A DNA stretch of 56,882 nucleotides, from IMG/VR virus record IMGVR_UViG_3300035136_000021, positions 1 through 56,882 of that record. One strand, given 5' to 3'. The DNA comes from a virus. Its lineage: Duplodnaviria; Caudoviricetes. Made by a program: the position numbers and the translations under genes. How positions within the stretch are numbered: position 1 is the first letter of the stretch; each line of letters opens with the position of its first letter. Below the pieces are notes generated by a model. The model searched no databases. It saw only the letters and a program-made list of their open reading frames with translations, and was not told the DNA's origin. This document shows positions 2,787 through 56,882 of this stretch, one piece after another.

Positions 2787-3095
2787 ATGAAAAAAATAAC
2801 TATGAATAATAAACAATACTGGGAATATAATAAAAATTATTTTGAATGTTCTAAATATGAAGAATCAAATGTTCTGAATATATCAAAAACTTTGATCAAT
2901 TGTATTAATTGTGAAAATTGTGAAAATTGTAAAGATTGTAAAGATTGTAAAGATTGTGAATATTGTGAAGATTGTGAAGATTGTGAAGATTGTGAAAATT
3001 GTTATTATTGTGAAAATTGTTATTATTGTGAAAATTGTGAATATTGTGAATATTGTTATGATTGTTATGATTGTTATGATTGTTATAATAATTAA
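2787..3095 (+). CDS. Cysteine-rich (Cxx)n repeat protein
   Basis: ATG 2787 after AAGGA; 21 Cys at every third residue encoded by 9-bp repeats. Confidence 0.7.
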   Translation: MKKITMNNKQYWEYNKNYFECSKYEESNVLNISKTLINCINCENCENCKDCKDCKDCEYCEDCEDCEDCENCYYCENCYYCENCEYCEYCYDCYDCYDCYNN

Positions 3096-3174: not shown

Positions 3175-3741
3175 ATGGATAAATATATAGGAACAAAATT
3201 AATTGAAGCAAAACAAATGAATTTAGGGGATTATAATAAATACAAAGGTTGGACTATTCCTGATAATGAAAACCCTGAAACAGAAGGATATCTTGTAAAA
3301 TATTCTGACTCTTATGAATCTTGGAGTCCTAAAGATGTTTTCGAATATAGTTATAAAAAATTAAATATGAAAACGGATATCCCCGAAATGTTACAACATG
3401 ATTTAATTACATATGATAATACTTATATATCACATGATGAAGAATTATTTAATGCTCCAAATAATTATTTAATTCATGAAAAAAACAGTAAAAGTGGTTA
3501 TGATATATTAGCAGGAATACATTTCCAAGAAGGACCTGTCAAAGTACATGGCTTAAACGGTATATTTATGGAAGATTTACTAGCTATTGTTATCGACAGA
3601 TTATATAAATTTCAGAAAAGTGAATTTAAGTGCCGAGAAAATGCAATAGTTATTACAAAACTGGAAGAATCGTTAATGTGGTTAAGAAAGAGAACGTTAA
3701 ATCGAAAAACAAGAGGAGTTCAAGGAACTTATAAAGTATGA
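3175..3741 (+). CDS. tad1: Anti-defence sponge fusion: N-terminal YIGTK..GYLVKY..YESWSPK domain + C-terminal Tad1 (Thoeris anti-defence 1) domain
   Basis: C-term IHFQEGP....G.NG....DL.....DRL..FQ...F.CRENA...TKLEE.LMWL.KR...R..RGV.GT matches the Tad1 family. Confidence 0.8.
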   Translation: MDKYIGTKLIEAKQMNLGDYNKYKGWTIPDNENPETEGYLVKYSDSYESWSPKDVFEYSYKKLNMKTDIPEMLQHDLITYDNTYISHDEELFNAPNNYLIHEKNSKSGYDILAGIHFQEGPVKVHGLNGIFMEDLLAIVIDRLYKFQKSEFKCRENAIVITKLEESLMWLRKRTLNRKTRGVQGTYKV

Positions 3742-3810
3742 TTACAAAAAAATTTTAGCTTGTCTAATATTAAAAGTATAAAATTAAATATCTGCAAGTA
3801 GGTAATTGCT

Positions 3811-3850
3811 TTAAAAAACCTAAAGATTCTAGAATCTTTAGGTTTTTTAA
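3811..3850. terminator. Perfect 40-bp palindrome, probable bidirectional intrinsic terminator
   Basis: TTAAAAAACCTAAAGATTCT|AGAATCTTTAGGTTTTTTAA. Confidence 0.7.
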
Positions 3851-6385: not shown

Positions 6386-6790
6386 ATGTCAGATTTTTAT
6401 CAAACAAAAATTATAAAAACTCGAAAACATCATTTATGTTGTAGTTGCGGATCACTAATACCTTTAGGTCATACATGTAATTATAATCAAGGTATTTTTG
6501 AGGATGAGTGGTTTAGAAATTATATTTGTCAAATATGTGTTAAATTTTTAAAAAAATCAAAAAATGACAATTCATATGATTATTGTTGGTTATTTGATGA
6601 ATTAGATTATATATATGGTGTATATTTTTTAAACATTAATTATATTATAAATCGTATAGATTTTCGATTGAATCATAATAATATTGTAAGTATTGATATT
6701 AAAGAATTTTTAGAATCAATCGATAATAATACTTTCTCAAAAAAATGGCTCAAACGTCAATATAATAAATATATTAAAATATTTAAATAA
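6386..6790 (+). CDS. Zn-finger hypothetical phage protein
   Basis: KTRK.H.C..CG ... C..C. Confidence 0.65.
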   Translation: MSDFYQTKIIKTRKHHLCCSCGSLIPLGHTCNYNQGIFEDEWFRNYICQICVKFLKKSKNDNSYDYCWLFDELDYIYGVYFLNINYIINRIDFRLNHNNIVSIDIKEFLESIDNNTFSKKWLKRQYNKYIKIFK

Positions 6791-6793
6791 TAT

Positions 6794-6822
6794 TTGACAT
6801 ATTGAAAATATTTTAGTATACT
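6794..6822 (+). promoter_or_regulatory. Sigma-A-type promoter for ssb/polB
   Basis: TTGACA-N11-TTTTAG-TATACT. Confidence 0.8.
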
Positions 6823-6871
6823 TAAGTTAAATTTAAAAAAAATCTAAAAAAATCAAAGGAGAATAAATATT

Positions 6872-7594
6872 ATGATTAATAATTCAAAAAGGACTAAAAG
6901 TATCAATTTAACTTTAAAAAGTGATAAGGACATCAGTGTAATCTATCCAAATTTAGCGACACCATGCAAATATAACTTGAAAGACAATAGTTTTACAGTC
7001 CTAGATATTCGTCCTAATAGTTTAGAAGATGGATATAAATATACTGCTACATTATTAATTGATAAAGAAAGTAAAAGTGCAAACGAAATAATGAAAGCAG
7101 TCAAAGAAATTTGGAAAATTTGGGATTTAAAAAATGAAGAAAATCCAAATAACCCAATTAAAGATGGTGATAAAAAAGCGTCTAAACTTGAAAATGAAGA
7201 TAAAAATGGAGATGTATACAAAAATAAATATGTTTTAAGAACATCAACAAAAAAAGTACCAAAAGTTTTTACAAAAACTGGAACATGGAATGGGATTAGA
7301 AAAATTGATGATGAAGCTATCCATGGATATTTTTGTAATGTGATGATATGTGTAAGTTATTATAAAGCTGGTACAAATGTAGGTGTAACATGTTATTTAA
7401 CAGGTTTACAATTAATTGAAGAAAATCCTGATTTACAATATCAAAACCCTGAAAGTGAATTTGATTTTGATGCTAAAGAACCTGAAAAATCAAAAGATGT
7501 AGATTCATTTGATTTTGATGAGGATGATGGTAAAAAAGTAGATGTAAAAAATATAAGTAATGAAGTAGATGATGATGAAGATCCTTTTATGTAA
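6872..7594 (+). CDS. ssb: Single-stranded DNA-binding protein (DUF2815 / T7 gp2.5-like)
   Basis: KY.ATLLI.K, PIKDGD, GV..YL.GLQ motifs; acidic tail ending DPFM; adjacent to polymerase. Confidence 0.8.
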   Translation: MINNSKRTKSINLTLKSDKDISVIYPNLATPCKYNLKDNSFTVLDIRPNSLEDGYKYTATLLIDKESKSANEIMKAVKEIWKIWDLKNEENPNNPIKDGDKKASKLENEDKNGDVYKNKYVLRTSTKKVPKVFTKTGTWNGIRKIDDEAIHGYFCNVMICVSYYKAGTNVGVTCYLTGLQLIEENPDLQYQNPESEFDFDAKEPEKSKDVDSFDFDEDDGKKVDVKNISNEVDDDEDPFM

Positions 7595-11873: not shown

Positions 11874-12413
11874 ATGAAATGTAAATGTTGCAAAGAAGAT
11901 AAAAACCCACTAATCAATATACACGATGAATACTTGTGTTTGACATGTTTTATTAATTTATATAATTCACATAACAATTCTTTAAACTCTTTAGATTCTT
12001 TAATATCTTTAGATTCTTTAGATTCTTTAGATTATTTAAAATCTTTAGATTCTTTAGATTCTTTAGAAATTTTAAAAATATATGTATCTAATATTACAAA
12101 AGTATTAAAAACTTTAAATGATTTAAAACTTAACATATCTAAAAAAATAAAAAATGATTATGAACAATCAAAACAAGCAGATATAAAAATATCAGATCAT
12201 TGTATCATCAGATACTTTGAACGTGTATTAAATTATGATATAGAAGATATAAAAACAAAAATAATAACAAATAATGTAAAATATAAATATCACGAATTGG
12301 GTTTAAATAGTAATAAAATTGAAATCGATAAAGATTTTTCGGTTTTGATAAAAGATAATATAGCCATAACAATATTAAAAAATGAAAAAAGAGAGGGGGA
12401 GGATATTAAATGA
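11874..12413 (+). CDS. Hypothetical protein: N-terminal Zn finger, SLD repeats, C-terminal SDH..IRY.ER domain
   Basis: AGGAGG RBS; motifs visible in the translation. Confidence 0.65.
   Translation: MKCKCCKEDKNPLINIHDEYLCLTCFINLYNSHNNSLNSLDSLISLDSLDSLDYLKSLDSLDSLEILKIYVSNITKVLKTLNDLKLNISKKIKNDYEQSKQADIKISDHCIIRYFERVLNYDIEDIKTKIITNNVKYKYHELGLNSNKIEIDKDFSVLIKDNIAITILKNEKREGEDIK
11977..12069. repeat. 9-bp coding microsatellite (GATTCTTTA)n, encoding SLD
   Basis: Read directly. Confidence 0.9.
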
Positions 12414-16266: not shown

Positions 16267-17169
16267 ATGGAAATTACAGTATTAACTAAAATATTTAAAA
16301 ATTTAGCATTAAATGATCGTTGTTTGTTTAAATCTATTTATTTAGTTATATATGGAAATGTAAATCATTATAAACATACTGATATTACAAAAATAATAGT
16401 AAAAACTATTGATTATTACATAATAAATAAAAATAATTTAGAAACATTTTTCAAAAGTGATGATGGTAGAATAATGATTTCTAATTCTTTATTATTCATT
16501 AATTTATTAGATTTCTTTAAACTTCACGGATATTCAAATGATCTTGAGGTTAAAGATATTTCTTTAGTTATTCGGAAAAGTAAGATCGATAAGTTCTTAA
16601 ATTTTCTATTTTTATATAAAAAAATAGAAATTCCTAAAAAAATATCTGATTTAAATGCAAATAAATTAACTACAATTCAACATTACCTTATTAATGATAT
16701 TTACAACGGTATTAAAGATGGTTGTATATCCGATAATAAAAGTATATTTAAAATTCCAGAGAACTTAAAATCTTTTGTTAGACCTTATAATGTTAAATCG
16801 AAAATATCTCAAAAATGCTTCAATGCTTTATATAATATAAAATTTAACGAAATAAAAGATATAATGAAATTTGAAGAATTCGTGAATATTAAAAATTTAC
16901 ATTTTCCTACATTTAATCAATATTCAAGATTGTTAAATAATTTTGAATATCAACACAATAAAATAAAATGTAATATTAATAGTAAAATATTTAATATCCA
17001 TAAAAAGTATATAGACTTTGTACATTTAATTTACAGGTACAATATGTTGCAACCTTTAACAAATAATATAGATCTAGGTTTCTTGAGTACTTATGATTCT
17101 TATTCATTAATAATCATACAACATAATGAAATAATAGGTCAGATAATGCCTTTATGTAAAATTATTTAA
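16267..17169 (+). CDS. Hypothetical protein
   Basis: 300-aa ORF, AGGAGG RBS. Confidence 0.7.
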   Translation: MEITVLTKIFKNLALNDRCLFKSIYLVIYGNVNHYKHTDITKIIVKTIDYYIINKNNLETFFKSDDGRIMISNSLLFINLLDFFKLHGYSNDLEVKDISLVIRKSKIDKFLNFLFLYKKIEIPKKISDLNANKLTTIQHYLINDIYNGIKDGCISDNKSIFKIPENLKSFVRPYNVKSKISQKCFNALYNIKFNEIKDIMKFEEFVNIKNLHFPTFNQYSRLLNNFEYQHNKIKCNINSKIFNIHKKYIDFVHLIYRYNMLQPLTNNIDLGFLSTYDSYSLIIIQHNEIIGQIMPLCKII

Positions 17170-17501: not shown

Positions 17502-17520
17502 TATATGCTTCATCTTTATT

Positions 17521-17568
17521 CACAAGGAGACTCCCGCTTCTAAAGCTGTGAGAGGAATTGTGACTACT
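17521..17568 (-). mobile_element. IS200/IS605-like subterminal hairpin remnant
   Basis: Minus strand CAATTCCTCTCAC...GGGAGTCTCCTTG; 38/48 identical to 22167-22214. Confidence 0.5.
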
Positions 17569-17829
17569 CTTAAATTCCTTAAGAGTTTTTTTTTTACCTT
17601 CAATCAATCTAATAACTTGATTCTTTAAATGTATGTTATTTTAAATATACAGGTTCTTTGATTTGTATAGTCTTATGTCGATTTGGAACATACTGTAAAT
17701 TACAGAAATTAGGTGATGTAAAAATTTAGCATGTATATTTCCAATGTATAAAAATGGTCATAAGTATCGTTTAACACATATTACTAAACATGTTAATAAA
17801 AAACATTTGAGATATTGAACAAATACAAA

Positions 17830-18640
17830 AAATTTAGGCAAATTTTTTGCCTGTTACTAATACCTTACATTATACCGTTATAATCCTTACTATTACTAAG
17901 TTTAGAGATTTGTCAGCTAACATAAGCAGGCATTCTTTAGGCACCAATATACATATCGGTCAAAAATTAGCTACCGTCATTACTATCTTATAGAGATCAG
18001 GCATTTTAGGCATAAAATATTAAAGTCAGCTAGCCAGAAAAAACACCCTAATTTTTTTTTACATTATCAAATTATATATTTATTCGTAGAAAATGCCTAA
18101 AATACCTTAGGGTATTGTACAATAGTGATAATCAGTCTTTAAACGGGTTTTGTCATTTGCCTAAAAATGCCTGTCACCTATAGGTGACGAGGTCTGTATA
18201 CCTGTAATGACGATGGCTAGAAGGTAATTAGGTACTAAAAAAACTTAGGCAATTTTTTTGCCTAACTATGCCTAGAGTAGTCATAATCATTAATTGGGCA
18301 AGGGATCAAAAAGGTTCAAAAAAGATTTGTAAAACAATATTGATTAATAGTCAAAAAACTAATACAAAATAGTCAGGTTAAAAATTTGCCTAAAAGTATT
18401 TAAAAAAGTTAGGCAAAAAATTTGCCTAACTGTGCCTAGAGTAGTTATATCAATTGATTTAATGGGTTTTAAGATATTTTGTTTCATATAATATTGATAT
18501 TTAGAAATTAATTTTTAAATATTGATATGGGCCTTTAAAGCATGATATTACTTATTTAAAGTATTTAGTGTATAAAATATTGATTTAGAATTTAAATTCT
18601 AAATATAAGATTCTAGGCATATTTTTTTGCCTAATTTTTA
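17830..18640. repeat. Cluster of TGCCT(A/G) motifs including AGGCA-N7-TGCCT inverted pairs (iteron-like, locus A)
   Basis: Pairs at 17836, 18247, 18411 and 18615 (N8), plus tandem copies. Confidence 0.8.
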
Positions 18641-20044
18641 ATCGTGATTTTTAAAATTTTTAAATCAAAAAGATAAAATTGCTTTAAGACCTTTAGTATC
18701 AATAGATTTAAAGAATTTAAGTACTTTTTTTCAATTGTATCTAAAGATTCTATAATTTTTCGTATTTTTAATATAATCCAGTAATATCAATACCGTCAAG
18801 GTTTTATAAAAGTTAATTTAAATTAAATTAGATATATGCAAAACACTACTCGTTTTTTAATTTTTTAATATATTACGACTTTATGACATGGACATCATAG
18901 AGACATAGCGTTAGTTTAACTGTCATTCCATGTAGTGAATTGCTGACATAGATATTTAAAATAACTTTACCATATTTTGTTAATCCAATTCTTAGCTTCC
19001 TTTGAATCTTTTAGGATCTTTGACATTTTATGTATTTCCGAATATTTTACAATTTAATCTGTTTCCAATAATAGGTGATTGACATACACGAATTCAGATT
19101 ACTTTTTTACTTGATAAATTTGTAAATATAACGCCTTACCAAATGTTTTGTTTATCCACTAATAATTGGAAAAAAAAACTTCCAATTCTTGAAACGCTGA
19201 TTATTCAAAATACAAATAAAATTAGTGACACAAAATTTTCATACTAATAATGAACTTTTGTTTTTTAGAATGGCTATGTAAAATCATGTTAAAAACAACA
19301 ATTCTTAGCTTCCTTTTGATTTTAGTGACTTATAGATGTGTAAAAAATATGTTACTAAAATTTGTAGAAAAAAAAAAATACCATCGGGGGGTATGCTGGT
19401 ACGAACCATAATCACTTAAAAAAAAAATATAGTTTTTAAAACTGACAAAGTACTTTAAGACCAGTGATAGTAATGGTTCTAGAGATCATGTGTAAATAAT
19501 TACCAATTGGAAAACATGGTAATTATTTCAATCAAAAGTATACAAGACGTTCCAAATATTTCCAACGGTTTTACTGGCTTACAGCGATTTAGTTATATTT
19601 AAATATTCAAATATTCAAATATTTGAATATTTACAGTTTGAGGATACTTTTGTAATAAAAATATAGTAAATTAAGTAAATAAAAAACGACTTTTAAAATG
19701 ACAAAATATACGTACTGATATCACTAGTTTACATGTACATGGTCGTGGGAAACCTTGTTACAATCAGACATGTAAGAGCTAAAAAAACTTACTTTTTTTA
19801 ACGCACACGTTTGTTACCATATATTAGTATTGACAAATATTTTAAATATTGTATAATAAAAGGTTTGTTAAAAATTAGTTAATTTTAAAATACTATTTTA
19901 TTAAAAAGTATGATATAATGAAAAAAAATTAAAATTTGTCGTATAATAAGTTAAGATTATGTTGGACAAGGAAGCTAAGAATTATTAGAATTCTCAGCTT
20001 CCTTAAAATAATTTAAATGAAATAATAATAATACTAAAAAAAAT

Positions 20045-20060
20045 TGTTTCATGTGAAACA
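20045..20060. promoter_or_regulatory. parS: parS site (1 mismatch)
   Basis: TGTTTCATGTGAAACA vs consensus TGTTTCACGTGAAACA. Confidence 0.85.
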
Positions 20061-20070
20061 TATAGCATTT

Positions 20071-20500
20071 AGTTCCCTTAGTTCCCTTAGTTCCCTTAGT
20101 TCCCTTAGTTCCCTTAGTTCCTTTAGTTCCCTTAGTTCCCTGAGTTCCCTGAGTTCCCTTAGTTCCCTTAGTTCCCTTAGTTCCCTTAGTTCCCTTAGTT
20201 CCCTTAGTTACTTTAGTTCCCTTAGTTACTTTAGTTCCCTGAGTTCCCTTAGTTCCCTTAGTTCCCTTATTTCCCTTAGTTCCCTGAGTTTCTTTAGTTC
20301 CCTGAGTTTCTTTAGTTCCTTTAGTTCCCTGAGTTTCTTTAGTTCCCTGAGTTTCTTTAGTTCCTTTAGTTCCCTGAGTTCCCTGAGTTCCCTGAATTTA
20401 TTTAGTTCCCTTAGTTCCTTGAGTTCCCTGAGTTCCCTGAGTTTATTTAGTTCCCTTAGTTCCTTGAGTTCCTTGAGTTCCCTGAGTTTATTTAGTTCCT
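20071..20500. repeat. About 48 x 9-bp array (AGTTCCCT[T/G])n
   Basis: Read directly; CT[A/C]AGGGA on the minus strand. Confidence 0.95.
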
Positions 20501-20515
20501 TTTATCATACTATAT

Positions 20516-20544
20516 TTGACAATACGTTTGTATTTTAGTATAAT
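20516..20544 (+). promoter_or_regulatory. Consensus sigma-A promoter
   Basis: TTGACA-N11-TTTTAG-TATAAT. Confidence 0.85.
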
Positions 20545-20604
20545 ATAAACAATAAGTTAACAGATGTAATTTTCATGAAAATTCTGATACTGGGAGTGTT
20601 GATT

Positions 20605-20808
20605 ATGGATTTAAGTATTATTGAAAAAAGTATGACAAATATTAAACCAACAGAAGAACAAATTAAAAAAATTGAATCTTTACGTGAAGATTATAAAAGT
20701 TTAGCAAAATGTGTTAATGAAATATCTAAAGATAGCAGATATAAAAGTTTAGCTATTACAAGTTTAGAAGAATCGTTGATGTGGGCTGTTAAAAATATAT
20801 TGTTGTAA
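20605..20808 (+). CDS. Acb2/Tad1-hairpin family cyclic-nucleotide sponge candidate
   Basis: ATG 20605 after GGGAG; KPTEEQ...I..LR.....LA........SR..SLAIT.LEESLMWA. Confidence 0.72.
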   Translation: MDLSIIEKSMTNIKPTEEQIKKIESLREDYKSLAKCVNEISKDSRYKSLAITSLEESLMWAVKNILL

Positions 20809-20843
20809 TAAAGGAAGCTAAGAATTCTTAGCTTCCTTTATTA
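20806..20843. terminator. Perfect 38-bp palindrome with core AAGGAAGCTAAGAATTCTTAGCTTCCTT
   Basis: Same core repeated at 20901-20928 and 53313-53340. Confidence 0.75.
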
Positions 20844-20931
20844 TTAGGTGATGTTAGTTATCATACATCATGTCAAAAACATTAAATAATGTGAAGTATT
20901 AAGGAAGCTAAGAATTCTTAGCTTCCTTAGT

Positions 20932-21270
20932 ACTGAGACCTGAGGGACTGAGACCTGAGGGACTGAGACCTGAGGGACTGAGACCTGAGGGACTGAGACC
21001 TGAGGGACTGAGACCTGAGGGACTGAGACCTGAGGGACTGATGAACTTATGTGCTGATGAACTTATGTGCTGATGAACTTATGTTATGTGCTGATGGTAC
21101 TAAGGGACTAAGGGACTGAGACCTGAGGATTTATGTGCTGATGGTACTAAGGGACTAAGGGACTGAGACCTGAGGATTTATGTGCTGATGGTACTAAGGG
21201 ACTGAGGGACTGAGGGACTGAGACCTGAGGATTTATGTCCTGATGGTACTAAGGGACTGAGGGACTGATG
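20932..21270. repeat. Composite array: 7 x 15-bp ACTGAGACCTGAGGG, 16-bp units, then about 46-bp units containing CT[A/G]AGGGA
   Basis: Read directly. Confidence 0.93.
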
Positions 21271-21324
21271 ATTGTAATAAGAATGCATTTGATAACACCG
21301 ATTTATTGTAGTAGTTTTTTTAAT

Positions 21325-21340
21325 TGTTTCACGTGAAACA
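21325..21340. promoter_or_regulatory. parS: Perfect parS site
   Basis: TGTTTCACGTGAAACA. Confidence 0.92.
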
Positions 21341-21649
21341 TATAGTATTTAGGAAGCTGAGAACAAAAGTTTTTTTTAAGTTTTATATTTTTTTTTTTGT
21401 TATTTTTAATTTTTTGTAATTTTTTATTTTTTTTGATTTTTTAAAATTCTGGGAAATTATAGAAAATTTATTTTTATTTTTTCCGAGGTAGTGAAAATAA
21501 ATCTACGTAATATTTTTTCAATATACTTAAATAAATCCAAGAATTCAATAAACTTAAAGAATCAAAGAACTTAAAGAATTAATGAAATAAAAAAAAATCC
21601 AAAAACTTAAAGAATCAATGAACTAATGAACACAAGGAGAGGATTGACT

Positions 21650-22036
21650 ATGTTATCAAATACCTTTCAAATTATATTAAAGAAAATAGCCTGTAAAATG
21701 AATTTACAATTAAAAACTGTTGAAAATATTCTTAAGTATATAGAAAATATGAATATTGAAGATTATTTGTATGCAGAAAATTTAGAATCTAAATTTAAAT
21801 TAGACCAAAAAACTATTCTTAAAATATTAACTTTACTTGAAAAAGAAGATATTTTAAAAAAAGTATACAAATTATATTGTCCTAGATGTAATAATTTTAG
21901 TGATGATTCATATGAAACTCTAAAAGATTTAGAGGAATATGAGAATTGTGAAAATTGTGGTAATAAACTAATATCCAAAGATAATTTATATAAATATGTT
22001 ATTATATTTTTTGTGGTGAAAAATAATGGCAAATAA
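21650..22036 (+). CDS. Winged-helix + Zn-ribbon hypothetical protein
   Basis: AGGAGAGG RBS; L.LLEKE.IL...Y...CPRC ... CENCG. Confidence 0.6.
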   Translation: MLSNTFQIILKKIACKMNLQLKTVENILKYIENMNIEDYLYAENLESKFKLDQKTILKILTLLEKEDILKKVYKLYCPRCNNFSDDSYETLKDLEEYENCENCGNKLISKDNLYKYVIIFFVVKNNGK

Positions 22037-22166: not shown

Positions 22167-22214
22167 AGTAGTCGCAATTCCTCTCACCACCTAAGATGTG
22201 GTAGTATCCTTGCG
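22167..22214 (+). mobile_element. IS200/IS605-like subterminal hairpin remnant
   Basis: GCAATTCCTCTCACCACCTAAGATGTGGTAGTATCCTTGCG. Confidence 0.5.
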
Positions 22215-22221
22215 AGGAGTG

Positions 22222-22647
22222 ATGAAATTAGACAAAGATATATATACAATTCCTGAAGTAGTTAGAATCTTAAGATTAAATGATAAAGAAGTGAGAGAAA
22301 TGTTAAGAAATAAAACTTTATCAGGTTTCAAGATGAATAATGGTGATTGGAGAATTAGTAAAGAAGCGATATTAATTTTTTTAAACGATAAAGAATATAA
22401 TATATTTAAAAATCTTGATGGTTATGTTATTAATATTTATCTAATACATAAAGACGTAGATTTATCTAAACTTAAAGGTAAAGATTTTACAAAATGTAAT
22501 TTAGATGATCATTTATTTTCAGATATTAAAAATAATGAAGTAAAATGTGTATTTGGCGGAGTAGAATTTATAAGGAAAGAAGAATTGAATAAATATATTG
22601 GATATACTTCAAGGAATAGAGAAGAAAACAGATATTATCAGTTATAA
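22222..22647 (+). CDS. Excisionase/MerR-like HTH (HTH_17) domain protein
   Basis: IYTIPEV..IL......V...L....L.GFK...G.WRI; start uncertain. Confidence 0.65.
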   Translation: MKLDKDIYTIPEVVRILRLNDKEVREMLRNKTLSGFKMNNGDWRISKEAILIFLNDKEYNIFKNLDGYVINIYLIHKDVDLSKLKGKDFTKCNLDDHLFSDIKNNEVKCVFGGVEFIRKEELNKYIGYTSRNREENRYYQL

Positions 22648-24177: not shown

Positions 24178-25710
24178 ATGGAATATCCTTATCCTACTAA
24201 ATATAATGATACATGGGAACTTGAAACCATAACCGTACGTGATATCTTTTGGCAAGCTAGTAAAAAAGAACGTATTGAACTTGCTAAAAGTAATCCATGT
24301 ATATTTGGTGAACAATATATAAAACCTTGCATTAAACAATGGATTTATAATACAGCTAAACATCAGTATTATATGCTGTATGAAGCATTGACTAATGACA
24401 ATATTGTAATTCATATCCCGATGGAACATGCAAAATCAACATGGTTCAGTTTAGTTTTACCATTGTGGTTTTTGATCAATGATCGAAACACTTATGGTTG
24501 TATATTGTCTAATACAGCAACACAAGCAACTGGATTTTTATCTGCTATAAAATGGCATATAGAACATAATGAAAAATTTAGAGAGGATTTTCCAGAAATA
24601 CGTCCTGATTATAAATCTAAATGGGCGGAAAATGAGATAAATATTATTCGAGATAAGGATAAACAAAGTAAAGATTATACCATGGTTGCAAAAGGGACAG
24701 GTAATGCTATTCTGGGAGCAAGATTTGAGTGGATTATAGCCGATGATATTTTAGATCTTGAAAATACAGCAACTGAAATCCAAAGAAATAAAGTGAGAAA
24801 ATGGTGGAATCAAACTGTAGATTCTAGAATTATAGAAGGAGGTCGAAAAATAATCATCGGGACATTGCAACATGATAAAGATTTGTTAGTTGAATTAGGT
24901 GAAAAAAAAGATATTTATAAATATATTAATTTAAAAGCATTATATAACAATAAAATTCCATTATGGGAAGAACAATGGAGTTTAAAAAGATTATTGTATA
25001 AAAAAGCTAGTATTGGAATTTTAGATTTTAACAAGACTATGCAAAATGACCGGGAATCTACACAAAATAAATCACTGGATCGTAAATGGTTAAATTATTA
25101 CGGTCCAACAGAACATTATAACTTTAAGATTCATAACCCTAATGTTAGAATATACATAGGTATAGATCCAGCGATAGCTGACGACAAGACAACTGCGGAA
25201 AAAAGACGATTAGATAAATTTGCTCTAATGGTTACTGGTTTCGATTTGACATCAAAGTTGATTTTTGTATGGGATTATTTACAAGGGTACTTTACATTTC
25301 CAGAACAGATTGAAATTATTGATAAACAATATAAAAGATATAAAGAAATTAATGTTGTAAAGGGTATAGGCATAGAACAAACTGCTTATCAAAAAGCGTT
25401 AAAACAACAGGCGTTTTTATTATCTTCACTACCTCCTATAAGAGGTGTAAATACAGGTACATCAAGTAAAGCAACAAGAATTGATAGTCTAGGCGTGTAT
25501 TTTCAGTCTAAAAGAATTTATGTCAAAAGATCTCATGATAGCTTGATAGATGAATTCGTGAGTTATGAACCAGGTGGGTTATCACCTAATTTATTAGATG
25601 CACTGTGCATTATAATAACAATGATCACAGGAGTATCTACTATATCAGATATAAAAGTACATACTAAAAATATTTTTAAAAATGAAAGGAGTTTTATAAC
25701 ACAATGGTAA
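24178..25710 (+). CDS. terL: Terminase large subunit
   Basis: HQ adenine motif, P.EHAKST Walker A, IIADD Walker B, IIGT coupling motif, IGIDPA nuclease. Confidence 0.92.
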   Translation: MEYPYPTKYNDTWELETITVRDIFWQASKKERIELAKSNPCIFGEQYIKPCIKQWIYNTAKHQYYMLYEALTNDNIVIHIPMEHAKSTWFSLVLPLWFLINDRNTYGCILSNTATQATGFLSAIKWHIEHNEKFREDFPEIRPDYKSKWAENEINIIRDKDKQSKDYTMVAKGTGNAILGARFEWIIADDILDLENTATEIQRNKVRKWWNQTVDSRIIEGGRKIIIGTLQHDKDLLVELGEKKDIYKYINLKALYNNKIPLWEEQWSLKRLLYKKASIGILDFNKTMQNDRESTQNKSLDRKWLNYYGPTEHYNFKIHNPNVRIYIGIDPAIADDKTTAEKRRLDKFALMVTGFDLTSKLIFVWDYLQGYFTFPEQIEIIDKQYKRYKEINVVKGIGIEQTAYQKALKQQAFLLSSLPPIRGVNTGTSSKATRIDSLGVYFQSKRIYVKRSHDSLIDEFVSYEPGGLSPNLLDALCIIITMITGVSTISDIKVHTKNIFKNERSFITQW

Positions 25711-26000
25711 AATTAAACAAAATACAACTTAAAGAAATTATAGATTTAGGTAGAGGAATTGAAAATTTAGAAAAAATTAAAGAAATAACGAAGTATCAAA
25801 AAAATGGCGTTGAATTAACTGAAATGTATAAAAATATTAGAGAACAATTGAGTCAAGAAATGTTGAATATTTATTATCAAGAATCTAAAGATGCTTTAGA
25901 ATCTAAAGAATCTAAAGAATCTAAAGAATCTAAAATACCTAAAGAATCTAAAATACCTAAAGAAAGAAAGAAACCAGGTAGACCAAAAACTAATGAATAG
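25704..26000 (+). CDS. Hypothetical protein with ESK repeats and an AT-hook-like KKPGRPK tail
   Basis: Translation. Confidence 0.6.
   Translation: MVKLNKIQLKEIIDLGRGIENLEKIKEITKYQKNGVELTEMYKNIREQLSQEMLNIYYQESKDALESKESKESKESKIPKESKIPKERKKPGRPKTNE
25881..25964. repeat. 9-bp coding microsatellite (GAATCTAAA)n, encoding ESK
   Basis: Same unit as the reverse complement of the 11977-12069 repeat. Confidence 0.9.
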
Positions 26001-34081: not shown

Positions 34082-36106
34082 TTGGATTTCAATGATTATT
34101 TAAATAAATCAACAATTAAAAATTTAACAGTTTCACAATCTTTAAAAATTGGTAATCAATCAGTAATAACAAATCAAGGAAATTCGTATTTTGTTGATTC
34201 AGGTGCTACGGGTGCTAGTGATTCAAACGATGGTAAAAGTTGGGCTAATTGTTGTGCTACATTAGATGGTGCAATTAATAAATGTACAGCTAATCAAGGT
34301 GATGTGATTTATATTGCAGAAGGTCATAGCGAATCATGGACGACAACCGGTGCTAAAGCTATTTTTGATACTGCAGGTATTACAGTTATTGGGTTAGGTA
34401 CTGGATCAGATAGACCTACTTTTTCATATGGTCATACTGATGCAACATGGACAATTTCAGCAGCTAATATAACTTTGATTAATTTATTATTTATAACTGC
34501 TGTAGATTCTGTAGTTATTTATGGTACTATCTCAGGTACAGATTGTACAATGATTAATTGTGAATCAAGAGATAGTACTAATAAAGAGGTTCTTGATGCT
34601 TGGACAGTTACTACAACTGCAAATAGATTTAAAGTAGATTTTTATAAACACATAGGTTATATTGGTGGTGATGCTAATGATAGCGTATTCCAATTAACTG
34701 GTGTAGATGATTTTATTATCCAAAATTGTGTTTTCATGACACAATCAGGTACTACAACAGGTTCAGCAGTTATCGAAATGGTTACTGCATGTTTAAGAGG
34801 TTTGATTCAGAATTGTGTTTTTTATGTTGATGGTAAATCTGATTATTCAGATAATATAGTTGATACAGAAGGTACATCAACTGTCATAGTAAAAGATTGT
34901 TATGATTTAGAAGCATGTGGTAAATTTTCAGGTGGTGGTAATGGTTCTTCATTTTCATTAGCAGGTGATGATGTTGGTACTCTTAGTACATCATTAGCAA
35001 CATTACAAGCTGAATTTTCAGGAGCAACAGGAATAACAGCATTTCCAGCAGGAGCAGCAGCAGCAAATAGTGTTTCGGTAGCGGAAGTTATTAGATATAT
35101 TCAAGAAAATATAATTAATGGTGGTACTGTTTTACCTGCAACTCAATCATTATATGATATTTTAGCAGGTACAAATGGAATAGGTACATTTCCAGCAGCA
35201 GCAAATCCAGCTAATGGAGTTTCTATTGCAGAAGTTTTAAGAGATGCATGGGACAACATTGGAGATGCTAAAGCAAGAACAAATCTTCAAAGTTTAGTAG
35301 CTATGTTAGGTAATCCTGATACAGCAGCACAATCTATTTGGGATTGTTTAGCAGGATCGGGCGGTATTGCAACATTTCCAGCAGGAACTGCTGCAGCGAA
35401 TGATGTATCTTTAGCTGAAGTTATTAGATATATTCAAGAAAATATAATCAATGATGGTACTGTTTTACCTGCAACTCAATCATTATATGATATTCTAGCA
35501 GGTGCGAACGGAATAGCTGCATTTCCAGCAGCAGCAGCACCAGCGAACGATGTATCTTTAGCAGAAGTTTTAAGAGATATCTGGGATTCTCTCAGAAATG
35601 GTACTGGTGGAAGTGAGCCAGGAACAAACTTATCTATAATTGATGAGTTGAAAAAAGGTATGGTTCATTATAATAATCCTAATTATTTAGCTGTTACTGC
35701 AGATTTGACTTCTGCAACTTGGAATACAGCAGAAACACATGAATTATTTACTGTGACAGGTTTAGTAAGAATGAGAATTTATGCAGAAGTAACAACAACA
35801 GGTGATGATTCAAGCGGTAACACAGCAAATATTCAGTTAGGTGTTGAAAATACTACAAATGCTTTTATAGCAGCAACAGAAGTTGATGATTTGACTGCAG
35901 GTGAAATTTGGTATGATGCTACACCTACTGTAGTTACAGATGATACAAGTAGTGTAATATTAGATAAAATAGTAAATGGTGAAGATGTAGGTTATGAAAT
36001 AACAGGTGAAGCTGCGATAGATGGTGTTATTGTATTCCATTGTGTATGGGAACCGTTAAATAGTACTGGTAATGTGGTTGCAGGTGATGGCTCAGCTATG
36101 GTTTAG
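34082..36106 (+). CDS. Large virion (head fibre-like) protein with beta-helix and FPA.A..AN.VS.AEV repeats
   Basis: TTG start with AGGAGG; YFVDS.....DG.SW....TL..AI.......GD.I; internal duplication. Confidence 0.65.
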   Translation: MDFNDYLNKSTIKNLTVSQSLKIGNQSVITNQGNSYFVDSGATGASDSNDGKSWANCCATLDGAINKCTANQGDVIYIAEGHSESWTTTGAKAIFDTAGITVIGLGTGSDRPTFSYGHTDATWTISAANITLINLLFITAVDSVVIYGTISGTDCTMINCESRDSTNKEVLDAWTVTTTANRFKVDFYKHIGYIGGDANDSVFQLTGVDDFIIQNCVFMTQSGTTTGSAVIEMVTACLRGLIQNCVFYVDGKSDYSDNIVDTEGTSTVIVKDCYDLEACGKFSGGGNGSSFSLAGDDVGTLSTSLATLQAEFSGATGITAFPAGAAAANSVSVAEVIRYIQENIINGGTVLPATQSLYDILAGTNGIGTFPAAANPANGVSIAEVLRDAWDNIGDAKARTNLQSLVAMLGNPDTAAQSIWDCLAGSGGIATFPAGTAAANDVSLAEVIRYIQENIINDGTVLPATQSLYDILAGANGIAAFPAAAAPANDVSLAEVLRDIWDSLRNGTGGSEPGTNLSIIDELKKGMVHYNNPNYLAVTADLTSATWNTAETHELFTVTGLVRMRIYAEVTTTGDDSSGNTANIQLGVENTTNAFIAATEVDDLTAGEIWYDATPTVVTDDTSSVILDKIVNGEDVGYEITGEAAIDGVIVFHCVWEPLNSTGNVVAGDGSAMV

Positions 36107-39180: not shown

Positions 39181-41895
39181 ATGGCAAGTTTAGGTGAATT
39201 AATGTTACGTTTAACACTTCGAGGTGCATCTAATGTAACATCAGGATTAAACAGTGTTATGGGAAGTTTAGGTGGAATTGTTCCTATAGGTCTTAAAGCA
39301 GCTAAAGTCTTAGGTGAGATCGCTTTAGCAGGTATCAAAACAGCTATGAAATTTGATCAACAAATGTCTAGAGTTAAAGCTATATCAGGAGCTACCGGGG
39401 ACGAATTTCAACAATTAAGAGACAAAGCACTAGAAATGGGATCAAAAACAATGTTTACGGCATCAGAAACGGCTCAAGCGTTTGAATACATGGGTATGGC
39501 AGGATGGAAAACATCAGATATGATGAGCGGTATTAGTGGTGTAATGAATTTAGCCGCAGCATCTGGTGAAGATTTAGCACTCGTATCTGATATAGTGACC
39601 GATGGAATAACAGCGATGGGTCTTACTGCAAAAGATACAGATATGTTTGTTGATAGTTTAGCTGCAGCAGCAACTAATAGTAATACAAATATTGCCAAAA
39701 TGGGAGAAACTTTCAAATACGCTACACCATTAGCAAATAGCCTAGGATATAATGTAAAAGACTTAGCGGTAGGGATTGGTTTGATGGCTAATGGTGGAAT
39801 TAAAGCAAGTCAAGCAGGTACAAGTTTGAGGATGGGATTGAAAAGATTAGCAGCACCACCAAAAGCAGCAGCAGCAGCGATGGATAAATATGGTATATCA
39901 TTAAAAGATGCAAATGGTAAAATAATGCCGATGTCTCAATTGATGGAACAATTAAGAGGTAAATTAAAAGGTTTGTCTAAAGATGAAAAGATTTCAGCAG
40001 CATCTGCTATTTTTGGAGCTAACGCTATGAGCGGATGGTTAAATGTTATTAATGCATCTGATAAAGATTTTAATAAATTAACTAAAGCTTTGCAAAATAG
40101 TGACGGAGCTGCGGCTAAAATGGCAGAAACAATGCAAGATAATCTTGCCGGTCAAATTACAATAATAAAATCTACAATTGAAGGATTGTTAATAAAAATT
40201 GGGGATCAATTTACTCCAATTTTGAGAGAATTGGCTAAAGCTTTACAAGTTGTTGGTGATTATTTAAATACAAATTTTGAAACAATTTTAATGAGTATTC
40301 ATGATTTAATCCATGGTTTAATTGTAAATGGTTTTCAACCATTTCGAGAAAATGTTTTAAATTTATTTCCACCTGAAATGAAAAATACTGTTAATAATAT
40401 TATTAATAAAATCATTGAATTTAGAACAACTTTAGGTAATGTAGTAAATGCTGTTATGAACTTTTTAGCTCCTATCGGTCAAATGTTCAAGGATACTTTT
40501 ACTGCTATAGATTGGACACCTATTTTAAATGGGTTTAATAGAATTAAAGAAAGTGTCCCGTCCTTATTAAATATTTTAAAATTATTAGGTGTGGTTTTAG
40601 GAATAATAGTAGCTGTGATATTGGGGGTAGTAGTTGGTGCTGTTAATGCTTTAATAGCTGTCTTTGATAATGTAATTGGTATGATTGTAAATGTAATAAA
40701 TATATTTACATCATTAATTGATATCATCGTTGGTTTAGTGACTGGTGATTTTGAAACATTAAAACAAGGGTTTATGAATTTATTTGATAGTATAATAAGT
40801 TTAGTAAATAATTTCAAAGATTTAGCACTTGATTTGATTTTTGGATTTGTCGAAGGAGTTATTCAATTTTTCATGTCGTTGTATCATGCATTGGTCGGAG
40901 GTTCTATTATTCCAGATTTAGTTAATGGAATCATTACATGGTTTACTAATTTGAAAGATAAAGCGATTAATCTTATAAATAGTCTGAAAAATAAATTAAT
41001 AAACATATTTAACACCCTTAAAACAGGTGTTACAAATATTATAAATAAAATAAAATCAACAATAATTAATATTTTTAATAGTATAAAAAATAAAGTAGGA
41101 AATGTTATAAATACTCTTAAAACTAATGCAATTAATAAGTTTAATAGCCTTAAGTCAAGTGCAGTAACTGCAATAAGTAATCTTAGGAATAATGTAATTA
41201 ATAAGTTTAATAGCCTTAAATCGAGTGCAGTAAATGCAATAAGTAATCTTAGAACTAATGCAATTAATAAATTTAATAGCCTTAAATCGAGTGCAGTAAA
41301 TGCAATAAGTAATCTTAGGAATAATGTAATTAATAAGTTTAATAGTCTTAAATCAAGTGCTGTAAATGCAATAAGTAATCTTAGGAATAATGTAATTAAT
41401 AAGTTTAATAGCCTTAAATCAAGCGCCGGAAATGTAATAAATAATTTAAAAAGTTCAATAAGTTCTAAATTTAGTACTTTGGCTAGTTCCGCTTTGAAAT
41501 GGGGATCAAATATAATAAATAATTTTGTTTCAGGGCTTAAAAGCAAATTAAGTTCTGTTAAAACTATAGCTTCAAATATTTCATCGACAATTTCAGGATT
41601 TATTGGATTTAAAAGTCCTACTAAAGAAGGAGCTGGGAGATTTGCTGATGAATGGGCACCAAATTTAATGGATATGTTTATTGATGGAATTAATAATTAT
41701 AAAGGTAAATTAAACAATGTGATGTCAGATATTAGTAATAATATGGGAAATGGATTATCTAATGTAGGTTTAAATACAACAGGTAATAAATCAGCTATAA
41801 TTAATATATATGCTGATAGTTTGACGAATGGTAAAAAAGTAGGTCAAGTTTTGGTAAAAGAATTAAATCGTATGGGTGTGAGAACTCATAAATAA
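39181..41895 (+). CDS. Tail tape measure protein (TP901-type core) with 22-aa repeats
   Basis: FDQQMS.V.A.SGA, MAGW, AGT.LR, FKSP...G; 66-bp repeats at about 41110-41430. Confidence 0.95.
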   Translation: MASLGELMLRLTLRGASNVTSGLNSVMGSLGGIVPIGLKAAKVLGEIALAGIKTAMKFDQQMSRVKAISGATGDEFQQLRDKALEMGSKTMFTASETAQAFEYMGMAGWKTSDMMSGISGVMNLAAASGEDLALVSDIVTDGITAMGLTAKDTDMFVDSLAAAATNSNTNIAKMGETFKYATPLANSLGYNVKDLAVGIGLMANGGIKASQAGTSLRMGLKRLAAPPKAAAAAMDKYGISLKDANGKIMPMSQLMEQLRGKLKGLSKDEKISAASAIFGANAMSGWLNVINASDKDFNKLTKALQNSDGAAAKMAETMQDNLAGQITIIKSTIEGLLIKIGDQFTPILRELAKALQVVGDYLNTNFETILMSIHDLIHGLIVNGFQPFRENVLNLFPPEMKNTVNNIINKIIEFRTTLGNVVNAVMNFLAPIGQMFKDTFTAIDWTPILNGFNRIKESVPSLLNILKLLGVVLGIIVAVILGVVVGAVNALIAVFDNVIGMIVNVINIFTSLIDIIVGLVTGDFETLKQGFMNLFDSIISLVNNFKDLALDLIFGFVEGVIQFFMSLYHALVGGSIIPDLVNGIITWFTNLKDKAINLINSLKNKLINIFNTLKTGVTNIINKIKSTIINIFNSIKNKVGNVINTLKTNAINKFNSLKSSAVTAISNLRNNVINKFNSLKSSAVNAISNLRTNAINKFNSLKSSAVNAISNLRNNVINKFNSLKSSAVNAISNLRNNVINKFNSLKSSAGNVINNLKSSISSKFSTLASSALKWGSNIINNFVSGLKSKLSSVKTIASNISSTISGFIGFKSPTKEGAGRFADEWAPNLMDMFIDGINNYKGKLNNVMSDISNNMGNGLSNVGLNTTGNKSAIINIYADSLTNGKKVGQVLVKELNRMGVRTHK

Positions 41896-53310: not shown

Positions 53311-53342
53311 CAAAGGAAGCTAAGAATTCTTAGCTTCCTTTG
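53311..53342. terminator. Perfect 32-bp palindrome ending the minus-strand operon
   Basis: CAAAGGAAGCTAAGAA|TTCTTAGCTTCCTTTG. Confidence 0.75.
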
Positions 53343-56614: not shown

Positions 56615-56779
56615 AATAATACATTATAGTAAATAATTAATAATATGATGTGTCGAAAAATATATAAAACAAGACTTTTGATTTATTGTGTTTATTGTGT
56701 CAAAAGTCTTTTTTTATTAGTGTTTTATTGTGTCAATATTATTTTTTATTGTGCTAATATTATATTATATTTTATTTCT

Positions 56780-56882
56780 TTGCTACAAAATATTCTTTGC
56801 TACAAAATATTCTTTGCTACAAAATATTCTTTGCTACAAAATATTCTTTGCTACAAAATATTCTTTGCTACAAAATATTCTT
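56780..56882. repeat. 6 x 17-bp A-variant units, continuous with the start of the window
   Basis: Identical to 1-103, suggesting a circular molecule or an assembly overlap. Confidence 0.95.

Follow-up and report, generated by a model that had tools for sequence, protein, structure and literature searches.

Two chromosomal-type parS sites at the edges of a repeat-rich cassette in a phage without detectable partition or integration genes: possible loading sites for host ParB

The phage genome analysed here carries a pair of chromosomal-type parS sequences at the outer edges of a discrete cassette and encodes no detectable partition or integration protein. We hypothesize, with a probability of about one half, that the pair loads the ParB protein of the host and couples the unintegrated phage genome to host segregation. 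The window, i.e., the whole stretch of DNA analysed, is a record of 56,882 bp that represents a complete siphovirus-like genome of ~57 kb encoding a primase-helicase and a DNA polymerase. The initial annotation had recognised the two sites, which stand, and had overlooked the cassette that they delimit. The sites and the repeats that contain them are listed below.

20042..20072, no strand assigned: left 31-mer direct repeat, containing parS-L
20045-20060: parS-L, sequence TGTTTCATGTGAAACA, 15/16 to the consensus, with C>T in the central CG
21322..21352, no strand assigned: right 31-mer direct repeat, containing parS-R
21325-21340: parS-R, sequence TGTTTCACGTGAAACA, 16/16 to the consensus TGTTNCACGTGAAACA

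A chromosomal-type parS, the ParB/Spo0J site, was defined as a 16-bp palindrome fitting TGTTNCACGTGAAACA, and both palindromes fit it (16/16 and 15/16). They are the sole matches with at most two mismatches in the 56,882-bp record, and both lie in non-coding DNA. The 31-mers are in direct orientation, start 1280 bp apart and differ at 2 of 31 positions, and are alike no further than their edges. The pair amounts to four strand matches against a shuffle mean of 0.10, and none of 100 shuffles reached four, a count to be read with the fact that parS-L and parS-R arose by duplication, so that the second copy is no independent event. The expectation from base composition is 1.0e-5 perfect parS per genome, and a chance origin of the sites is ruled out by the shuffles and the composition estimate. 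The same pattern applied to phi29 (NC_011048) as a positive control gave four perfect sites, a count that none of 200 shuffles reached. The coordinates bear out the earlier description of a perfect and a one-mismatch parS lying 1280 bp apart in duplicated 31-mers. The 22-mer around a parS site has no exact match in IMG/VR.

The earlier claim that the phage has no Par proteins was borne out. A six-frame profile search gave no match to ParB_N (PF02195) or to AAA_31 (PF13614, the ParA-type ATPase), and none to Phage_integrase (tyrosine) or Resolvase (serine recombinase), while the control profiles for these searches gave matches in 10-14 of 14 genomes. Of the 124 listed ORFs of at least 50 aa, 69 were scanned with Pfam and PHROGs and gave no Par family; neither did the 17 ORFs scanned with PADLOC or the 20 scanned with NCBIfam. 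The searches likewise brought up no recombinase or transposase. The phage thus has the cis sites, lacks a detectable trans factor and offers no known route of integration. Since many of its ORFs belong to no family, a very divergent partition protein may hide among them. Two further proposals were rejected. The ORF at 16267-17169 (300 aa), considered as a hidden ParM/ParA-like protein, has no family, the Atlas offered nothing useful for it (best feature score 0.86, TM at most 0.37), and its single-sequence AlphaFold model was unusable (pLDDT 37.8). The second was the C-terminus of an FtsK/SpoIIIE-family ATPase (54638-56614) with weak TraB similarity, considered as a gamma-type winged helix; it gave sub-threshold Pfam hints alone, lies in a region without homologs, and its model was likewise unusable (pLDDT 34.4).

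We infer that both palindromes are genuine chromosomal-type parS that would act as loading sites for host ParB (Spo0J) on the phage DNA, in a host that would have this parS type. Since the genome shows neither a ParB or ParA-type ATPase nor an integrase or recombinase in these searches, ParB at these sites would link an unintegrated genome to the segregation apparatus of the host. Bound at the two sites, it would spread outward, and the link could run via ParA/Soj positioning; possible loading of SMC is pure conjecture. The phage genome might then be carried and inherited as an episome in a non-lytic or delayed phase, and in a sporulating host it might be dragged into the forespore. According to PMC12511625, CTP-bound ParB loads at parS, spreads on the DNA and recruits SMC.

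By analogy, the phage probably borrows host ParB as phi29 does. For phi29, PMC2731898 describes five parS sites and the involvement of Spo0J in the prespore segregation of the phage genome, and the precedent invoked in the initial annotation is real; our own scan gives four perfect sites. The work on phi29/Nf was the sole precedent that our literature search returned for host ParB at phage parS sites. The likeness lies in a ParB-less phage with exact host chromosomal parS, the trans factor of phi29 coming from the host. However, phi29 is a 19-kb protein-primed podovirus, whereas the present genome is a ~57-kb siphovirus-like one with its own primase-helicase and DNA polymerase, and the phi29 sites are dispersed and mostly in genes, whereas here two non-coding sites 1.28 kb apart bracket a cassette. 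Moreover, the phi29 strategy depends in addition on Spo0A boxes at early promoters, which hold down the lytic cycle, and the present genome shows no excess of such boxes: TGTCGAA occurs three times against 3.03 expected, at 8734, 40848 and 56651, and not near the promoters at 19830 and 20516 or elsewhere near the cassette. Spore entrapment, cited earlier as the precedent, is therefore unsupported here. In kind the phage joins the phi29 type, and its layout is unusual.

In B. subtilis, an inserted parS stabilises a plasmid. Elements of the P1/N15 type supply both ParA and ParB themselves and have centromere sequences of their own. The phage resembles such type Ia partition loci (P1, N15) in that an extrachromosomal phage genome without an integrase bears palindromes like those of a centromere, but no parA or parB is detectable in it and a self-encoded ParABS was not found. 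With chromosomal ParABS (Soj-Spo0J-parS) it shares the identical 16-bp palindrome, at which CTP-dependent loading and spreading of ParB and interaction with ParA and SMC would be expected from PMC12511625; here, in contrast, it is a virus that carries the sites, they do not lie close to an oriC, and there is no adjacent parAB operon.

The two sites bracket a 1.3-kb cassette that is rich in non-coding DNA and made up of arrays, a promoter, a small gene and hairpins. Its features, with those just outside, are given below.

19830..19857, plus strand: sigma-70/sigma-A-type consensus promoter upstream of the cassette (TTGACA, 16 nt, TATAAT; 12/12)
19968..20006, no strand assigned: variant hairpin of the recurrent GGAAGCT.AGAA/TTCT.AGCTTCC type (dG -11.8 kcal/mol, z -4.3)
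20069..20500, plus strand: 9-bp tandem array of 48 units (TTAGTTCCC x23, TGAGTTCCC x8 and further variants), a copy number that is uncertain in the assembly because the array (430 bp) exceeds short-read length
20516..20544, plus strand: second consensus promoter, towards the small gene (TTGACA, 17 nt, TATAAT; 12/12)
20605..20808, plus strand: 67-aa Acb2/Tad1 hairpin-domain gene with a GGGAG ribosome-binding site; the open frame extends back to 20575
20806..20843, no strand assigned: perfect 19+19 palindrome/hairpin immediately 3' of the stop codon (dG -15.3, z -8.7)
20895..20934, no strand assigned: second copy of the preceding hairpin (dG -14.4, z -7.6)
20932..21041, plus strand: 15-bp-unit array, ACTGAGACCTGAGGG x7.3, 100% matches, G-rich on the plus strand
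21038..21084, plus strand: 16-bp-unit array x2.9
21084..21268, plus strand: composite 47/55-bp units x3-4, with the 8-mers ACTAAGGG/ACTGAGGG
21352..21363, minus strand: hairpin-arm half-copy TTCTCAGCTTCC, adjoining the right 31-mer

The hairpin at 19968..20006 ends a short unit opened by the 19830 promoter, and the hairpin at 20806..20843 is followed by a T-rich tail and is terminator-like. The left array is C-rich on the plus strand, with 41% GC against 25% for the genome and the core CCCT[T/G]AGT. The reverse complement of ACTAAGGG/ACTGAGGG, namely CCCTTAGT/CCCTCAGT, is this same core, so the array blocks are inverted. All 39 copies of the 8-mer core in the genome lie inside the cassette.

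Several other readings of the repeats were rejected. The ORF at 20044-20538 across the left array, with its 'SSL' repeat, has no ribosome-binding site, and the periods of the right arrays are not multiples of 3, which speaks against coding. A genome-wide polar (KOPS-like) motif is excluded by the confinement of the 8-mer core to the cassette. A G-quadruplex symmetry was set aside, since canonical G4 motifs are confined to the left array, on its minus strand, and the right arrays have none. The number of DnaA boxes (25 vs 22.9 expected) shows no enrichment and speaks against an oriC-like origin beside parS. Rfam gave no family at the gathering threshold anywhere in the window.

On the preferred reading, that host ParB loads at the parS pair, the cassette delimited by the sites would be an accessory unit gained recently; its core is a strongly promoted, terminator-closed Acb2/Tad1-hairpin gene between inverted short-repeat arrays. 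These arrays would most likely be sites for a second protein, or roadblocks that retain ParB clamps on the cassette. The direct-repeat layout also fits a recombination scar. The 31-mers may be scars or att-like repeats left by insertion or duplication of a mobile 'moron' cassette, with parS hitch-hiking from a plasmid or chromosomal centromere and having no role here, which we consider unlikely. Such an origin agrees with 31-mers that delimit the unit exactly, with likeness ending at their edges, and with the location of the unit inside a hypervariable region (10-23.4 kb) that the nearest relatives, which lack the cassette, do not share. In contig C5 and in one metagenome contig, homologs of this gene likewise have ordinary genes around them and neither arrays nor parS, and the phage genome has expanded tandem repeats at many places. 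However, a neutral 16-bp palindrome would be unlikely to remain perfect, no recombinase or transposase was found in the record, and a target-site duplication would rarely reach 31 bp.

Alternatively, the arrays, alone or together with the palindromes, could be the phage's own cis site for a phage protein: a centromere flanked by iterons as in Gram-positive theta plasmids, a locus for the phage's FtsK/SpoIIIE/TraB-like translocase, or part of a packaging or genome-end region ahead of the terminase genes, host ParB not being key. The two inverted short-repeat blocks flank a promoter, and the concentration of the 8-mer cores in one place would suit such a site, as would the weak TraB similarity and sub-threshold C-terminal winged-helix hints of the phage's FtsK/SpoIIIE-family ATPase and the position of the cassette, which lies 2.1 kb ahead of the probable genes for small terminase and TerL. 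The repBC locus of pAD1 belongs with the iteron-flanked stability loci of Gram-positive theta plasmids. In the pBMB165-type replicons (pBMB165/pXO2/pAW63), two sets of 8-bp repeats, in both direct and reverse orientation, flank a small unit of two plasmid-stability genes, according to PMC1626470. Two such repeat sets were found here as well (20069-20500 and 20932-21268, inverted, with a common 8-mer core). The plasmid sets consist of 3-10 units, in contrast to 48 and about 25 here, and flank a ParA-like ATPase and a small partner gene, whereas here the Acb2/Tad1-hairpin gene stands alone and AAA_31 is lacking. The arrays neither enclose nor adjoin a ParA-like or known centromere-binding gene. 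They are missing from relatives that have the same terminase and FtsK-like gene and are thus no core site of packaging or translocation, and the translocase gene adjoins an array of different, 17-bp units. The exact identity to parS would also be left unexplained. We consider an own cis site distinctly unlikely.

The protein of 67 aa encoded at the centre matches Pfam PF24729 (53 bits, E 4e-14; cut-off 27 bits) and also phrog_1454. Its homologs share 60-79% identity, and PF24729 was detected in all four that were found. It is a probable anti-defence protein and a candidate nucleotide sponge. With the Acb2/Tad1 sponges it has in common the score above the gathering value, the small size and a strong early-type promoter, but it has no match by sequence to any solved structure. 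Protein-guided scans for the gene found no locus with arrays or parS, and to our knowledge no Acb2 or Tad1 gene has been described with flanking arrays and parS. The arrays that flank this probable anti-defence gene pose a problem of their own.

Palindromes of 16-20 bp are typical targets of dimeric wHTH proteins. Downstream of parS-R, at a distance of 290 bp, begins an ORF for a MarR-like winged-helix protein (21626-22036; sub-threshold MarR match, E 0.0012), and an HTH_17 ORF (22198-22647) follows it. The MarR-like product could in principle read the 16-bp palindrome. The palindromes might thus be operators for one of these two phage proteins, their likeness to parS being a coincidence, or a mimicry that lets the phage protein occupy host parS too. 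We regard this as very unlikely: a 16/16 match to the ParB consensus by coincidence is expected at ~1e-5 per genome, neither consensus promoter overlaps the parS sites, both HTH ORFs lack a homolog in the relatives, and unrelated phages have the identical parS sequence.

The earlier proposal that the phage uses host ParB was upheld in part. The exact parS, the missing Par genes, the phi29 precedent and recurrence in other viruses speak for it; absence from the closest relatives speaks against it. The complete relative G001 has no parS at up to two mismatches, none was found in Bacillus phage BSP7 or Weizmannia phage Youna2, and contig C5 has a single match with two mismatches. Beyond this lack of conservation, there are just two sites, which are mutual copies, and in parS-L the central CG has been altered.

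ParB-parS of this type is standard in Bacillota. Among cultured phages, those of Bacillus and Weizmannia give the best matches to TerL, with 40-41% identity across about 90%, and the endolysin relatives that bear names are all from Bacillota, while the major capsid protein best matches those of Arthrobacter, Roseobacter and Pseudomonas phages. One bacterial bin with a relative of the phage is labelled Gammaproteobacteria, an assignment that is doubtful for the phage-like contig because its GC content is 26%, against 34-38% in the other sampled contigs. This doubtfully assigned bin also contains ParB_N (135 bits) and a one-mismatch parS. The capsid gene occurred in one of 14 genomes of the MAG's order, which was the MAG itself. 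The hairpin 24-mer has no exact match in IMG/VR, and the array 21-mer matches two unrelated contigs of higher GC (3-4 units each), which we judged uninformative. Among the sequencing runs listed, one DNA dataset, probably that of the source sample, contains the phage, and no RNA dataset does. The earlier label 'host-type' rests on the wide spread of the parS consensus.

If host ParB loads here, the phi29 trick would not be peculiar to one small phage family, and large tailed phages without integrase or partition genes could persist and be inherited without lysogeny, so that 'virulent' metagenomic phages lacking an integrase would need re-reading. A more far-reaching reading, which we hold to be speculative and quite improbable, is a self-contained, horizontally acquired 'segregation-hijack' module, in which the two ParB-loading sites would trap host ParB-CTP clamps over the 1.3-kb island and the inverted CCCTTAGT arrays would be a second cis site, either a roadblock or a locus for the phage's own FtsK/SpoIIIE-like pump. 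With such a module, a phage that has neither ParB nor integrase would be inherited like a plasmid, or would reach daughter cells or forespores, and ParB-less parS clusters would be widespread in uncultured phages as an unrecognised alternative to integration.

A small survey of other viral contigs agrees with the reading that host ParB loads at phage parS. At least 137 IMG/VR stretches contain a perfect parS. Of these, 22 contigs were tested: all 17 that reach 30 kb within the 80 matches listed, and the five with the lowest GC. ParB_N was present in three of the 22 and gave no match in the other 19. Among the six ParB-less records that are at least 90% complete, none has a tyrosine integrase and three have three consensus sites each. 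Among the matches listed, open frames of at least 100 codons cover 51% of 103 distinct parS against 82% of 1580 random positions (Fisher p 1.8e-11), i.e., parS is depleted in long open frames. Recurrent parS clusters in unrelated ParB-less viral genomes, together with the enrichment in intergenic DNA, argue for selection on the sites and against mere recombination scars. In one of the six near-complete ParB-less records, two perfect parS lie 156 bp apart inside an intergenic gap of 220 bp.

The genome carries a perfect parS, TGTTTCACGTGAAACA, at 21325-21340 (parS-R) and a one-mismatch parS, TGTTTCATGTGAAACA, at 20045-20060 (parS-L), each enclosed by a 31-mer (21322-21352 and 20042-20072, respectively); the 31-mers are direct repeats with starts 1280 bp apart, differ at 2 of 31 positions, and lose all similarity at their edges. 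The scan at ≤2 mismatches found no other match in the genome, a count reached in 0/100 dinucleotide shuffles, and from base composition some 1e-5 perfect sites would be expected. With the same pattern, the positive control phi29, a Bacillus phage, returned four perfect sites and 0/200 shuffles reached its count. The pair of sites in duplicated 31-mers reported in the initial annotation is confirmed. At 3 mismatches only two additional weak sites appeared, identical strings at 35128-35143 and 35461-35476, 333 bp apart in the repeated part of ORF 34082-36106, where a repeat within the protein, and not ParB binding, probably accounts for them. The palindromes could instead be operators for a phage HTH protein, and a MarR-like ORF does lie 290 bp downstream, but a 16/16 coincidence with parS at ~1e-5 renders this improbable.

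Six-frame profile searches for ParB_N, ParA-type AAA_31, Phage_integrase, and Resolvase gave 0 matches in the record and were positive in 10-14 of the 14 control genomes. Partition families were likewise absent among 69 ORFs (of 124 listed ORFs ≥50 aa) compared with Pfam and PHROGs by hmmscan, and among unassigned or DNA-binding ORFs compared with PADLOC (17 ORFs) and NCBIfam (20 ORFs). The sizeable upstream orphan ORF 16267-17169 (300 aa) had no family match and no usable Atlas lead, and its single-sequence structure model had a pLDDT of 37.8, too low for use. The claim that the phage encodes no Par proteins therefore stands within the reach of these profile methods (six-frame, Pfam, PHROGs, PADLOC, NCBIfam), with about half of the ORFs lacking an assignment.

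We give roughly even odds (about 0.5) to the reading that the parS sites are bound and used by host ParB; any particular downstream function is far less likely. In B. subtilis, parS inserted in an unstable plasmid confers Soj/Spo0J-dependent stabilisation. The injected, unintegrated phage genome would present its two parS sites to the host, host ParB-CTP would load at parS-L and parS-R and then spread, and the complex would tie the phage DNA to positioning by ParA and perhaps also to SMC; according to PMC12511625, ParB that has loaded at parS spreads and recruits SMC. The phage genome could be kept and inherited in this way through a carrier or delayed-lysis state, and if the host forms a forespore, it could be pulled in. 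The proposed precedent of phi29 spore entrapment is real: passages of PMC2731898 describe five parS sites on phi29, the involvement of Spo0J in segregation of its genome into the prespore, and Spo0A boxes that suppress its lytic cycle. The Spo0A-box half of the parallel is absent here (3 matches vs 3.03 expected, 0 near promoters); DnaA boxes are not enriched in the window either. As in phi29, the cis parS sites lie on the phage and the trans factor would come from the host, whereas the phage type, the number and placement of sites, the lack of Spo0A-box enrichment, and the confinement of the sites to a discrete cassette differ. Own par genes, the defining feature of a self-encoded ParABS locus, were not found, and the cassette, having no ATPase or partner gene, does not match a pAD1/pBMB165-type stability locus. 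We place it among the host-parS-bearing phages, a known kind, within which its architecture is unusual.

At least 137 stretches in IMG/VR contain the perfect parS 16-mer. Among the matches listed, ParB_N was present in 3 and absent in 19 of 22 contigs tested (17 with ≥30 kb among 80 listed loci and the 5 lowest-GC loci), in a survey that is crude and partial and may include fragments or contigs with host flanks. Six of the eight records ≥90% complete lacked ParB_N and also tyrosine integrase, and three of these six, G020 (6637-6894, all three sites within 260 bp), G030 (3643-3814 and 10943), and G039 (89, 3062, and 7047), near-complete and unrelated viral genomes, have three consensus sites each; in one, a pair 156 bp apart lies within a 220-bp intergenic gap. 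Among the matches listed, 51% of 103 distinct parS sites fall inside open frames ≥100 codons vs 82% of 1580 positions drawn at random from these loci (Fisher p 1.8e-11). This argues that exact parS on ParB-less phage DNA is recurrent and selected, and hence supports the functional, host-ParB-dependent reading of the sites in the window. In the literature searched, with most subscription-journal papers outside the search, parS without ParB on phages was described only in the phi29/Nf work, and the broader pattern is worth systematic study.

The two parS sites bracket a cassette, a context missed in the initial annotation.

Features of the cassette (array lengths are those of a short-read assembly)
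19830-19857: 12/12 consensus promoter, leftmost, outside parS-L
19968-20006: hairpin between the first promoter and parS-L
20069-20500: left array of 48 tandem 9-bp units (TTAGTTCCC x23, TGAGTTCCC x8, other variants)
20516-20544: second 12/12 consensus promoter
20605-20808: 67-aa gene with GGGAG ribosome-binding site
immediately past the stop codon of this gene: perfect 19+19 hairpin (dG -15.3, z -8.7)
90 bp further: second copy of the 19+19 hairpin (dG -14.4, z -7.6)
20932-21268: right arrays, units of 15 bp (x7.3), 16 bp (x2.9), and 47/55 bp (x3-4)
abutting parS-R: half-hairpin

The 67-aa protein matches the Pfam Acb2/Tad1 hairpin domain (53 bits vs a cut-off of 27), as do its four homologs (60-79% identity); solved structures gave zero sequence matches. 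The most fitting reading of the gene is that of a candidate nucleotide sponge with an anti-defence role, under a host-type early promoter. A 188-aa protein at 3175-3741 (phrog_2428) matches the same domain at 22.4 bits, below the cut-off, and the phage may have two sponge-like genes. The arrays have 41-50% GC vs 25% for the genome. The left-array core CCCTTAGT/CCCTCAGT reappears in the right arrays when these are reverse-complemented, and the two blocks are therefore inverted; all 39 copies of the 8-mer core lie inside the cassette, with 0 elsewhere in the genome. Under the host-ParB reading, the arrays may be sites for another protein, roadblocks confining ParB clamps, or mere travellers with the cassette. 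The hairpin of the cassette, GGAAGCTAAGAATTCTTAGCTTCC, recurs as one full copy at 53315-53338, far away in the regulatory block on the - strand, and its single arms are found upstream at 18989 and 19302. There are 11 arm matches in all vs 0.22 expected, and the hairpin is a terminator or protein-binding palindrome found throughout the phage.

TerL at 64-67% identity is common to three viral contigs and one contig of a bacterial MAG. The long relatives, G001 (56.6 kb) and the MAG contig C5 (70 kb), have replication, structural, and lysis genes in common with the window, but between 10 and 23.4 kb nothing except scattered small genes. At ≤2 mismatches parS is absent from G001 and C5 has a single parS-like match, at 2 mismatches; homologs of the small gene in C5 and on a metagenome contig lie in ordinary operons without arrays. 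Bacillus phage BSP7 and Weizmannia phage Youna2, the nearest to this phage in TerL among cultured phages, lack parS, and IMG/VR has 0 exact matches to the 22-mer that surrounds parS or to the 24-mer of the hairpin. Because these relatives are without cassette, arrays, and parS, the cassette is a recent accessory acquisition, and core roles such as those of pac or ori do not apply to it. A mobile moron cassette might have left the 31-mers behind as a recombination scar, and their direct-repeat geometry and variable-region position fit this, but the palindrome is perfect, no recombinase was found, and parS recurs elsewhere, and we consider a scar unlikely.

Organisation of the genome, nearly all genes of which are on the + strand
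0.5-17.5 kb: early/replication block (SNF2 helicase, Gp2.5-like ssDNA-binding protein, DNA polymerase)
17.5-21.6 kb: largely non-coding stretch
21.6-47.4 kb: packaging/head/tail/lysis block (TerL, Mu-type portal, protease, major capsid protein, tape measure, Amidase_3 endolysin)
24178-25710: TerL gene
47.5-54.5 kb, - strand: primase-helicase and small RHH/HTH proteins
54638-56614: FtsK/SpoIIIE-family ATPase gene (weak TraB, EssC, SspH-like motor similarity)

This FtsK/TraB-like ATPase, together with the likeness of the two-block repeats to the 8-bp iteron sets that flank pBMB165-type stability genes according to PMC1626470, would suit a cis site read by the phage itself: a centromere of the iteron type, a locus recognised by the translocase, or a packaging region. 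We rate this as distinctly unlikely, since a ParA-like gene is absent, the arrays are missing from relatives with the same terminase and translocase genes, and the identity with parS is left unexplained. The probability beyond host ParB and these three alternatives belongs to explanations we have not thought of. The C-terminal 190 aa of the ATPase have zero homologs among 5.8 billion proteins and sub-threshold winged-helix hints only.

The clues to the host are mixed. TerL is 40-41% identical to that of Bacillus/Weizmannia siphophages over ~90% of its length, the endolysin relatives with an organism name are all Bacillota (38-48%; the closer ones, 53-69%, are metagenomic proteins), and the best phage matches of the primase are from Staphylococcus, Oceanotoga, Streptococcus, and Bacillus phages. 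The capsid points elsewhere, its best matches being from Arthrobacter, Roseobacter, and Pseudomonas phages (~30% identity). C5 is binned with a 'Gammaproteobacteria' MAG that has ParB_N and a one-mismatch parS, but the GC of C5 is 26% vs 34-38% for the other contigs sampled from the MAG, and the capsid gene is absent from all 13 order-mates of the MAG; C5 may be a phage placed in the wrong bin or a plasmid-like prophage. Judging from these similarities, Bacillota are the likelier host, as no more than a guess.

The 56,882-bp window (24.6% GC) is an IMG/VR virus record in full, assigned to the class with direct terminal repeats and an estimated completeness of 100%. Among the sequencing runs listed for it are one DNA run, probably the source sample, and no RNA run; the 103-bp 'direct terminal repeat' consists solely of a 17-bp tandem array running over the record junction (TTGCTACAAAATATTCT, ~21.5 + 6.3 copies, 1-365 and 56776-56882). 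Closure of the genome is plausible, though the copy number of this array is ambiguous. Lying just downstream of the FtsK/SpoIIIE-like gene, the array may be an iteron origin or a site for that protein; in the relative C5, 21-bp arrays stand at the start of the contig. Many tandem arrays with units of 9, 18, and 66 bp run in frame through ORFs, at 2908-3083, 11977-12067, 25879-25964, 48248-48496, and 41100-41452; repeats expand unusually readily in this genome, a point relevant to the origin of the cassette arrays. Intergenic arrays of 3-4 units of the TTAGTTCCC type, with an inverted copy nearby, are also found in two unrelated viral contigs of higher GC (L160, 2440-2530; L161, 2498-2560), possibly as a coincidence between short tandem units. 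No tRNA genes or Rfam families were found in the window. The 2.4 kb at 17502-19900, also Rfam-negative and without convincing ORFs, contain an AGGCA-(A/T)n-TGCCT palindrome five times (near 17836, 18248, 18411, and 18616, plus partial copies) with a terminator-like score on the - strand (6 found vs 1.1 expected), and this stretch could be a site of small RNAs or regulator sites.
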